From Stx2-converting phage Stx2a_F349: DNA of 59,872 nt. Made by a program: the position numbers. The stretch is taken from sequence record AP012530; one strand, given 5' to 3'. Positions 30,001-33,000 of this stretch are shown piece after piece (the first letter of the stretch is position 1; each line of letters opens with the position of its first letter).

Positions 30001-33000
30001 GGCTTTTTGCAATAAATGCGTACCGCAACGCATGTTTTTTACACCGAACCTGCCCCTTTGGAATGGGCCTTTGAGGATACCAGTTAGTGCTGGCGAGCCT
30101 CGGTGGGCTGGTTTCCTGTGCGGCAAAGGTTCATTTCAAAGAGTAGGTACACGCTATGAAATCATTAACCCTCTTCAATCAACCAATCCGTATCGGTGAA
30201 GATGGCATGATCTGCCTCACTGATATGTGGAAAGCCAGTGGTAAAAGTGAATCTGAATCTCCGTACCACTACCTGCGAAACAAGCAGACCAAAGAGTTCT
30301 TGGCTGAGCTGGAGAAAAACCACGAATCTGTGGTTTTTACGGAACGCGGTGCGCACGGTGGAACTTATGGCGGAAAGTTCGTTGCTTATGATTACGCAGC
30401 ATGGCTAAACCCCGGATTTAAATATGCAGCCTATAAAGTCCTCGATGATTACTTCACCGGAGAGCTTCATCATCGGAACAGCTTAAGTGCGCAGCTCAAC
30501 ATGAAATGTCATGAGTTTGATCAGAAAAAAGACATGGCGAGCTTCTGTGGACAAGGCCTCGCGGCATGGCGCTACACGAAACCTGGTTTGATCGCTGAAA
30601 TTAACTCCCTGGCTAACCAGTTGCAGATTTCGATCCCCGGGCTTCCGGGATGAGTGATCGTGTCATTGAATGCGCCTCCAGAGCGGGGCGCGACTTCTCA
30701 GAGTTCATGAAAGGCGAGAAGGGTATGATGGAAGCATTGGCCTCGGTGGATGAGTTTGGCGAGCAGCTGCGCCTCAACGGCTGTGTCAATCATCACTTTG
30801 TTAGCTACATGATGCGGAACTCGATCATGCAGGCATTCATGGACATGGCAAAAGCCGAGAGGAAAGAAGAGCGCCGGCGTAAGCGAGCGGAAGCAAAAGC
30901 GAAGTAGCCATTACAAAGCCCATCTACTGGTGGGCTTGATAATGGCTTATACCCTACACGGGATAACTTAACTGATATCCCTTTTAACGGATAAAGGTAT
31001 TCAAGCCTGACACATCATGCGCTGTATCGTCGCTGTATTTCCGCATTAACCATGACCGTAGCCCGACGGGGAATTCCTTCTGCGCGAGTGTGCGGGGATA
31101 ATCAAAAACGATACACACCGGGGTTTACCGCGTAAACGGAGCGCGGCGTTCTCCCCTCATGGTCGCCCGTCCGGTGCGATGGTGGAAGAAACTGGAATCT
31201 GTTCAATAAAAAAACTGCCGTGTTGGAGTCACAGCAGTAATGTACTGATTGGGTAGAAGATTATTATTGTTATGCTTTATTTTTATTCTATATGGCTGAT
31301 TATTTCAATTCGGAATTAATACAGCTAATGTCTGTGATTTTTTATAAATTCAGCAATATAAAGAAATAGTTATATGAACAGCCATCGCAGAGCATACTGT
31401 GTATCATTCTTTTTTATAGTCAACTGACGGGCATATTTTATGTCTGCTGCCAGCTCCCGGCGGCAAGATTCAATGACCCACGCAGAAAAATTTTCTGAAC
31501 CTTTCTGGTCAAGAGCGATGTTAATTTGTTCAATCATCTGGTTTGGAAATCGGATGTTGCGGGTTGTTGTTCTGCGGGTCCGGTTTTTCGATGACATTTT
31601 CTTTCCTCTGGTGACAAGTTATATGGCGAGGATTTTACATGGCTGTGCTTCGTACGTTACCGGGCAGAATCAAAACTCTGAACACCCGGCGGGTGAATGT
31701 CCTGAAGGGTGAACAGCGTCGTGTCAGTGGCAGTGCCCGGGTTTCCCTCAAGCGTCGTATCTGGCTCAGGGATGCCGGACAGTGCTGTCTCTGTGGGCGT
31801 GTGGTTGACCTTTGTGACAGTGAACTCGATCACCGCATTGCACTTCAGTTCGGTGGTGGTAATGAGGAGACGAATCTCTGGACGCTCTGTACTGAATGCC
31901 ATCGCCAGAAGTCAGTCAGTGAAACGGCGAGTGGTATGCCGGACCCGACGCTGCCGGAGGTGTCCGGAGGTCATGGCAGGGCAGACGATATCATCGGACT
32001 GTGACCCGCCCTGGGGGGGGGGGATCATCCGGCGAAAAAACGATCGCCCCGGACACCGCCCCCCGTCTCACGCAGAGAAAAAATTCCCGTTTCAGGGCAG
32101 TTAACATGTTAACTGGCTGTCCGGGCATTTTTGCGGTTTTTATCTTTATTATTCAGTTTGTTGTGCGGAAAAAATGTTAACTGGCTTTTTCAGCAAATGT
32201 TAACCAGGCAGCAGTTAACATTTGCGGCATGAGACGCCGGGAAAAATGGGCTGAACCATACCCGGCTGAGTGCGTTCTGGACCCGGGAGGAGGCTGTGCT
32301 GACAACGCAAAAACGAAAATTTGCGCTGGCGCTCATGTCCGGGAAAAACAAAACAGCGTCAGCCATTGCCGCCGGTTATTCGGCGAAGACCGCCAGGGTT
32401 AAAGGCTCGCAGCTGGCAAAAGATCCGGAGGTGCTCGCGTTTATAGCCCGTAAACAGTGCGAAACGGTGGAGGTGGATGAGGTTCCTGTTTACCGGCAGA
32501 AAAAATCAGAGCAGGAGGATAAACCCCGTCGCCGTGAGGTGGCTGCAATACCACAGCCGGACGAAAAAAATCCGGAGATGCCTCCGCCCGCGGTGATATC
32601 TCATGGTATTGAATATATGGAGGATGGTCTTCCCGATCCGGTGAAAGCGATGGGGCGTCTTCTGGTGGAGAACATTAATACCGACCCCAGGCTGGCGCTG
32701 GATGCGGCTTATAAGCTGGCGCAGTTCACGCACCACAAAAAAGGGGATGCCGGTAAAAAATCGGCAAAAGGTGACGCGGCGAAAAAAGCGGCTAACCGTT
32801 TTGCGGTGCCACCACCACCCCGCCTGGTGGTGAATAATGATAATGAGGGCAACGGATGATACCTGTGTGGAGCACGGCCTGCCCGGACTGGGCAGAGCGC
32901 CTGAAAAAGGGGCTGTCGATTATTCCGGCTCCGATTTATCCGGAGCAGGCCGCACATGCCCTGGCGATTTTTAAACAACTGCGGATTGTGGATGCACCGG

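Follow-up and report, generated by a model that had tools for sequence, protein, structure and literature searches.

The closest described relatives of the locus treated here are a small RNA (sRNA) and a family of small prophage proteins. Among the Hfq-crosslinked intergenic regions of Escherichia coli O157 strain Sakai, obtained by crosslinking and analysis of cDNA (Hfq-CRAC), the spacer ECs1786...ECs1788 ranks 15th and two other Sakai spacers have near-identical read counts; the candidate sRNAs EcOnc12 (Sp9, minus strand), EcOnc11 (Sp10, minus) and EcOnc10 (Sp12, plus) drew about 33 million reads each (Tree et al. 2014, Table S1B; PMC4104026). These three identical copies were renamed HnrS by Poudyal et al. 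2026, who describe an Hfq-associated sRNA of 66 nt that has a 5′ end of its own (differential RNA sequencing, dRNA-seq), an intrinsic terminator (Term-seq) and Northern data, encoded among the late genes of enterohaemorrhagic (EHEC) and enteropathogenic E. coli (EPEC) prophages (PMC13502914). HnrS represses the translation of hha via pairing at the ribosome-binding site AGAAG; it is perfectly complementary to the last 15 nt of mazF and has no detectable effect on MazEF, and the open reading frame (ORF) upstream of hnrS is not mentioned in that paper (PMC13502914). For the protein family, to which ynfO (Qin) and ylcI (DLP12) of K-12 belong, we found no functional study in the literature, nor for DUF1398/YdfO/YbcV or for ECs1788. 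We compare these systems with the interval 31205 to 31638 of the Shiga toxin (Stx) 2-converting phage Stx2a_F349 (sequence record AP012530; 59,872 nt, the whole of which we call the window). An original prediction had placed there a 75-aa minus-strand ORF, a minus-strand terminator and a gap of about 40 bp to an HNH endonuclease gene, and had read them as an orphan ribbon-helix-helix (RHH) regulator with its own terminator, able to control the packaging operon. All three features exist (the gap is 41 bp), but the interval holds two already-described objects and is largely ordinary: a gene of the YlcI/YnfO (DUF3950) family, followed by hnrS.

The 66-mer of the window is found exactly three times in O157 Sakai, in Sp9 (minus), Sp10 (minus) and Sp12 (plus), and the published EcOnc12, EcOnc11 and EcOnc10 intervals each fall inside one of these copies after correction for a coordinate offset of about 139 bp between genome versions, which we calibrated with the EcOnc03 probe (138–140 bp). 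No difference between the window sequence and the Sakai copies was detected. Each of the latter lies directly downstream, and on the same strand, of an ORF whose product is one residue off the window protein; ECs1788, ECs1967 and ECs2255 are the same as, or near-identical to, the window ORF, and ECs1788 is its Sakai counterpart. Both pairing regions are there as well: positions 31242–31256 (plus strand) correspond to the last 15 nt of K-12 mazF, the match being exactly 15 nt, not 16, while CUUCUACC, in the 5′ part of hnrS, pairs with GGUAGAAG beside the hha AUG at the ribosome-binding site (−12.1 kcal/mol; 36 of 500 shuffles were equally good). By sequence identity, the minus-strand segment 31208–31273 is hnrS, a published and thus already known sRNA. 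Rfam 15 has no model for it, and nothing in the interval was matched at E ≤ 1 (29500–33000 searched) or at the gathering thresholds (whole window searched); this is why annotation pipelines have missed hnrS. The Pas sRNAs and the AgvB/AsxR anti-sRNAs, considered as other candidates, map elsewhere, near Q/pR′.

The terminator hairpin folds at −17 kcal/mol (z = −3.9 against shuffles) and lies 131 nt past the stop codon of the ORF. A promoter-like site, TTGAAA-18-AAAAAT, stands between that stop codon and the terminator; it would place the start of transcription at about 31273, the 5′ end of the 66-nt RNA, and its distance from the terminator agrees with a 66-nt RNA. The terminator accordingly belongs, in the first place, to hnrS, a gene with a transcription start of its own; it is not the ORF's own, as had been claimed, although the ORF mRNA may share it. 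In having its own start and, presumably, in sharing the terminator of the upstream ORF, hnrS resembles 3′-untranslated-region (3′-UTR) sRNAs with their own promoter, of the DapZ type. A perfect 5+1+5 palindrome, AATTCCGAATT (31303–31313, minus), overlaps the −35 element of the promoter-like site and is a possible protein-binding site. Apart from hnrS, the search for small genes downstream of the ORF gave little: on the minus strand of 30908–31370 the only ORFs are of 44, 34 and 21 aa, none with a coding signature, and there is no ORF of at least 45 aa. Hence the earlier statement that a toxin-sized partner is missing from this phage was right, and the region 30910–31370 has yielded an sRNA in place of a small protein gene.

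The ORF is assigned to the YlcI/YnfO (DUF3950) family, and is not a chance ORF, by matches to Pfam PF13132 DUF3950 (E = 3e-17; 62.6 bits, cut-off 25), NCBIfam NF041551 YlcI_YnfO_N (E = 5e-10; 39.3 bits, cut-off 30) and phrog_949 (E = 6e-33). Alignments show the family motifs (K/R)xIRFP ... NFSAWVxEAC in proteins of some 50–80 aa; the window protein has RNIRFP and NFSAWVIESC. It also stands at the usual lambdoid site, as a leftward gene between lysis and packaging genes. A word-indexed protein search gave 725 homologues and an exhaustive search 102 representatives at E ≤ 0.001, while tblastn matched the ORF in 154 phage records, lambda and lambda-like phages included. The lambda-type homologue is some 200 bp away from the right (cos) end and is annotated in some records and not in others. 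Over codons 1–50, the proportions of synonymous and nonsynonymous differences from the lambda-type copies are about 0.5 (pS) and 0.06 (pN), with a pN/pS of 0.06–0.15: the protein core is under strong purifying selection, so that the conservation in related phages and prophages anticipated for the ORF was found.

Conservation stops abruptly. In E. coli phages, the first ~50 residues are near-invariant and the tails differ; beyond residue ~52 the changes are mostly non-synonymous, and in the one copy that is 86% identical (L094) the tail has mostly non-synonymous changes and an earlier stop. The last 25 residues look like an unconstrained read-through into foreign DNA. Against a lambda-like phage, the homology spans the first 141 nt of the ORF only, begins exactly at the ATG, and the differences are mainly synonymous. 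What follows is an AT-rich cassette of 254 bp that contributes the final 25 codons together with the hnrS promoter, hnrS itself and the terminator, with 24–35% GC against 50–60% in the flanks. Among phages, this cassette is present only in 70 records, all Stx-type and all with at least 99% identity; it occurs in 568 of 5426 complete E. coli genomes (about 10%), and those listed are mostly O157, O26, O111, O145 or O55. It is confined to STEC-type prophages (STEC, E. coli strains that produce Shiga toxin). L094 carries the single variant, 86% identical, in which the hha seed is kept and the mazF 15-mer is broken; a U·G pair of the terminator is changed there to U–A, consistent with a hairpin in minus-strand RNA. 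From the core-only homology and the distribution of the cassette, the ORF is a conserved core of old origin to which recombination has joined a young sRNA cassette.

Compared with K-12 ynfO and ylcI, the window protein is of similar size and 80–87% identical over its first 50 residues; like them, its gene is the last leftward gene before the packaging genes and has no assigned function. It differs in that the last 25 residues derive from the hnrS cassette, that the downstream neighbour is an sRNA and not DUF1398 or ybcW, and that the packaging module is of the HNH/Terminase_2 type and not the Nu1 type. The core occurs in lambda, Qin, DLP12 and other genera. Divergent DUF3950 genes are found at fixed chromosomal sites, so the family is not phage-restricted: between sopB and pipD of Salmonella pathogenicity island 5 (SPI-5) in Salmonella enterica subsp. 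diarizonae and arizonae (L042/L046), directly after cydDC in Pantoea (L061–L079), upstream of a CitMHS transporter gene in Tatumella (L045–L051) and between genes for a TonB-dependent receptor and CopC (L073). These chromosomal relatives are upstream of, and co-directional with, cargo genes; other divergent members of the family adjoin P4-type integrases. Lambda-identical DUF3950 sequences were also met on contigs, ~3.5 kb or ~48.5 kb long, that are assigned to Streptomyces, Cohnella, Pedobacter, Pseudomonas and other unrelated organisms, or to none (L009, L011–L040, L058, L059). Most likely, these are lambda control DNA contaminating assemblies, with sequencing errors, which explains many frameshifted “variants” in protein databases; the odd-tailed “variants” on such contigs were not counted towards the diversity of the tail.

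The two AlphaFold2 models (full-length protein; residues 1–55) both have an extended segment (12–18), a helix (19–32) and, after a short loop, another helix from residue 37 on, with a mean pLDDT of 74–75. In the PDB, Foldseek found no match that was significant (best E = 0.4). The match list of the full-length model consists mostly of RHH-type proteins, and nearly all 23 matches of the 1–55 model at E ≤ 10 carry an RHH-type DNA-binding domain (NikR, Arc, VapB, MazE9, MatP, plant TCP domains). The fold is probably that of Arc/MetJ/CopG-like RHH proteins, a prediction drawn from moderate-confidence monomer models and from the make-up of the match lists, not from any single significant match. The 53-aa Arc repressor of P22 has a core of similar size, with a basic N-terminal arm followed by two helices, and the strand motif N-x-R-(aromatic)-P aligns (hhalign pairs NIRFP with Arc NLRWP at E = 0.034 in a single comparison, probability 1.5%). 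In contrast to this likeness, there is no significant sequence similarity to Arc, and no ant control region of the immI kind surrounds the window gene.

Over 30900–31700, the window is 100% identical to the Stx2-converting phages Stx2a_WGPS4 and Stx2a_WGPS8, and it shares 98–99.9% identity with many Stx1/Stx2 phages of E. coli O157:H7; its source is a Stx-converting lambdoid phage. The RefSeq record of WGPS8 lists on the plus strand genes for holin, endolysin, Rz/Rz1, a KilA-N protein and a hypothetical protein, then, on the minus strand, a “DUF3950 domain-containing protein”, and beyond it, again on the plus strand, the HNH endonuclease, the small (TerS) and large (TerL) terminase subunits and the capsid. 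From this order, the 75-aa ORF is the only opposite-strand gene of the late block, transcribed away from HNH-terminase as predicted. It runs against the late transcript, and the two transcripts would overlap in antisense. No consensus promoter was detected in the 41-bp spacer between the ORF and the HNH gene, and the ORF promoter must lie within the first codons of the latter. In K-12, ylcI forms with ybcW a convergent excludon, which appeared in half or more of the RNA-seq samples (PMC12288877); this transcription in a cryptic prophage suggests that the YlcI/YnfO family has a promoter of its own that is active without induction. Morons of the lambda bor/lom type are likewise leftward units, each with a promoter and a terminator of its own, antisense inside the late operon; unlike in those, expression of the window ORF in lysogens is, for this phage, presumptive only.

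Although the gene is an orphan in this phage, “orphan” does not hold as a trait of the family. In Qin-type prophages, ynfO is followed 57 bp on by the co-directional ydfO, which encodes a DUF1398 protein of 136 aa, and the leftward series of lambda reads DUF3950, (gp79, on the other strand), gp78 (DUF1398) and bor. In lambda-type phages the DUF3950 gene directly faces Nu1/nohA/nohD. No PADLOC model matches DUF3950, DUF1398 or orf85. Overexpression of DUF1398/YdfO is reported to raise oxidative-stress resistance, and no toxicity has been reported.

In all, the interval probably contains two co-directional minus-strand genes, for an RHH-like repressor and for HnrS, placed antisense in a Q-dependent late operon, and neither of them regulates HNH-terminase. 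On top of the family membership, purifying selection, mosaic boundaries and hnrS identity observed here, we propose the following mechanism. The first ~50 residues of the YlcI/YnfO protein would be the functional unit, which would dimerise into an Arc-sized RHH whose paired TRNIRF strands read the DNA major groove while the basic N-terminal arm contacts the backbone. Its most likely role would be that of a lysogen-type “moron” regulator that represses or tunes the leftward accessory unit it heads, which comprises DUF1398 and bor in relatives and, possibly, the ORF itself and hnrS here. HnrS, for its part, blocks hha translation at the ribosome-binding site and so relieves silencing by Hha/H-NS. 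The mRNA of the ORF probably ends at the hnrS terminator, in the manner of a 3′-UTR sRNA with its own promoter.

Several results weigh against this proposal. For the fold, 21 family members matched no RHH Pfam family at E ≤ 10, protein and profile queries gave no meaningful sequence match in the PDB, and the models are monomers of moderate confidence; the CopG/Arc-like character first assigned to the protein is plausible from the predicted fold, and no RHH sequence profile is matched. For the regulation, no operator was found: there are no repeats in the spacer and no convincing motif is common to the two classes of upstream DNA, nor was a consensus promoter for the ORF detected. That DNA is wholly different between the packaging-module classes, and yet the presumed DNA-reading residues are invariant. 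The likeness of TTGATCTGCATCAA (lambda-type) to TTGATTCTGC (HNH-type), tried as a shared operator, was judged to be at chance level. For hnrS, the exact ends given here are placed within about 2 nt and do not come from a printed sequence. Finally, the cassette is recent and present in only about 10% of E. coli genomes, so a link between the RHH protein and hnrS cannot be the ancestral role.

The reading from which this work started, in which the RHH protein, bound to the 41-bp spacer, would autoregulate and also control HNH-TerS-TerL transcription, draws on the divergent arrangement of the genes across so short a gap, on the RHH-like fold and on the fact that RHH repressors commonly autoregulate. 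We consider it highly improbable. The spacer has no inverted or direct repeats, and it goes along with the HNH module instead of the RHH gene: two unrelated classes of DNA are found upstream of the ATG, inside HNH coding sequence or lambda cos-proximal sequence, and in lambda-type copies with 87% identity over the coding core the upstream DNA is unrelated. Moreover, transcription of the late genes of lambdoid phages starts at pR′ with Q as antiterminator and requires no local promoter, the flanking block as a whole forms a single plus-strand unit, and some relatives are far from any terminase. A narrower function, as a dedicated regulator of the hnrS promoter that couples counter-silencing to the state of the prophage, would suit the arrangement in the three Sakai copies and the window, where hnrS is directly downstream of the ORF on the same strand, as well as the palindrome over the −35 element; sRNA genes often adjoin their regulators. 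It is nevertheless unlikely, given that the RHH core greatly exceeds the STEC-confined cassette in age and in spread and that the ORF is absent from the text of the HnrS paper (PMC13502914).

Very unlikely, too, is a role in packaging alongside the small terminase, as an accessory factor or as a DNA-binding protein associated with cos. This is suggested by the lambda-type gene, which starts about 200 bp from cos and faces Nu1/nohA/nohD, and by P4-like satellites that encode fusions of DUF3950 to the TerS helix-turn-helix (HTH); such fusions are rare, however (five clusters, all from read-archive assemblies), the HNH gene stands between the ORF and cos in the window, and many relatives, on chromosomes or islands, have no terminase in their vicinity (in SPI-5, after cydDC, before CitMHS, beside CopC). 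To our knowledge, lambda packaging has been reconstituted without such a factor. We likewise give little credence to an orphan antitoxin-like or anti-defence protein that neutralises a host or prophage toxin, or pairs with DUF1398 in relatives. RHH antitoxins (Mycobacterium tuberculosis MazE7 and MazE9, VapB, ParD, TacA) are the top structural neighbours of the window protein and share with it an N-terminal RHH, in its case predicted, followed by a variable C-terminal tail; furthermore, Qin-type prophages offer the 136-aa DUF1398 protein as a co-directional partner, and the adjacent HnrS pairs with mazF mRNA. In contrast to those antitoxins, the window phage has neither a cognate toxin gene nor a match to a defence model, and the changes in the tail (frameshifts, early stops) look unconstrained, not diversifying; the PADLOC result and the properties reported for DUF1398/YdfO speak against a toxin, and HnrS leaves MazEF without detectable effect. 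The two-gene reading with a moron-type regulator also has a bolder form, in which YlcI/YnfO is a conserved prophage transcription factor whose invariant strand recognises a site common to lambdoid prophages and controls leftward lysogenic-conversion transcripts (hnrS; DUF1398, bor/iss). We regard this bolder form as unlikely. A link with TerS and cos, to which the satellite fusions point, would be a second such reading.

The satellite fusions are of 123–142 aa and join the DUF3950 domain to the N-terminal HTH of TerS (Terminase_2), which is 62% identical to residues 2–51 of the window TerS. They are encoded in P4-like satellites with integrase, an AlpA-like protein and primase (L084, 4714–5103; L092, 9001–9429), and in L092 the satellite adjoins a prophage HNH-TerS pair. 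By analogy, the fusion may be an Rpp-like device for hijacking TerS; the fusions being rare, we take them as no more than a lead towards packaging. Rpp itself, the packaging-redirection protein of phage-inducible chromosomal islands (PICI), is ruled out as a DUF3950 relative, being a winged HTH.

Downstream of the cassette lies block A (31017–31196, extending to about 30912), some 180 nt of non-coding DNA with 80–91% identity in many lambdoid prophages. It occurs with or without a DUF3950 gene and, where bor/iss is present, about 180–300 nt upstream of it on the same strand. In the window and in some relatives, it runs on to a minus-strand hairpin with a U-tract (about 30912–30940) whose stem varies by paired changes. 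As a structured RNA, block A was rejected for want of covariation support in RNAalifold (term +0.93), and as a small gene because its indel lengths are not divisible by three and, whichever frame is read, most substitutions are non-synonymous.

On the other side, the intergenic region between HNH and TerS contains, within 32098–32225, ATGTTAAC(TG) five or six times, in both orientations; these copies are candidate TerS-binding repeats of the cos region, and a run of ten G (32013–32022) adjoins these repeats. An IS3-family insertion element (33489–34813) interrupts the large terminase gene, leaving the pieces 32856–33488 and 34814–35830, and with that gene split the prophage is probably packaging-defective. 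The element has minus-strand ORFs at 33528–34418 (orfB, 296 aa) and 34415–34741 (orfA, 108 aa), with a frameshift (ALIL) pseudoknot at 34344–34460 (minus), and is, by its size, putatively IS629-like. Elsewhere in the window, the Rfam matches are to STnc100, IsrK, C4 antisense RNA, the lambda cIII thermoregulator and three tRNAs, each of them usual in the architecture of Stx phages. Coordinates are collected in Table 1.

Table 1. Features of the hnrS–YlcI/YnfO locus and other elements of the window (AP012530)
Feature	Position	Strand	Evidence
AT-rich mosaic cassette, 254 bp (last 25 ORF codons, hnrS promoter, hnrS, terminator)	31197..31450	.	
Intrinsic terminator: hairpin 31214-31238, 9 pairs and 7-nt loop, U7 at 31207-31213	31207..31238	-	
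hnrS (EcOnc10/11/12), 66-nt sRNA, AUAACAAUAAUAAUCUUCUACCCAAUCAGUACAUUACUGCUGUGACUCCAACACGGCAGUUUUUUU (ends inferred, +/- 2 nt)	31208..31273	-	Sakai identity, pairing
hha-pairing stretch CUUCUACC	31252..31259	-	pairing with GGUAGAAG; invariant in L094
Promoter-like site TTGAAA-18-AAAAAT, between ORF stop and terminator	31308..31279	-	
YlcI/YnfO (DUF3950) ORF, 75 aa, ATG start	31370..31597	-	ORF call and Pfam/NCBIfam/PHROG profiles
Conserved core, residues ~10-52, predicted RHH-like DNA-binding unit: basic arm, extended TRNIRFP, helix 19-32, loop, helix from 37	31442..31570	-	alignments, AlphaFold2 models, fold matches, pN/pS
41-bp spacer, ORF start to HNH start; holds the HNH ribosome-binding site (plus)	31598..31638	.	
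Shine-Dalgarno-like AGAGGA, 6 nt 5′ of ORF start, within the 41-bp spacer	31604-31609	-	
HNH endonuclease gene, first of the HNH-TerS-TerL packaging block	31639..32004	+	ORF and profile matches, RefSeq context
Rfam matches elsewhere	25375-25586(+), 19859-19935(+), 19961-20044(+), 7374-7432(-), 23724-23964(+)		

The ORF is already annotated as DUF3950/YlcI-YnfO in identical phage and genome records (RefSeq), and the minus-strand segment 31208–31273 should be labelled hnrS. In three Sakai copies and in the window, hnrS is found directly downstream of a strongly conserved small gene, predicted to be of the DNA-binding type, an arrangement that the HnrS paper does not discuss. The YlcI/YnfO family, present in lambda itself, beside cos, under strong purifying selection and without an assigned function, poses a small question in a very well-studied phage. 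If the YlcI/YnfO protein does act on the leftward transcripts, the counter-silencing sRNA HnrS would be under the control of a phage-encoded regulator.

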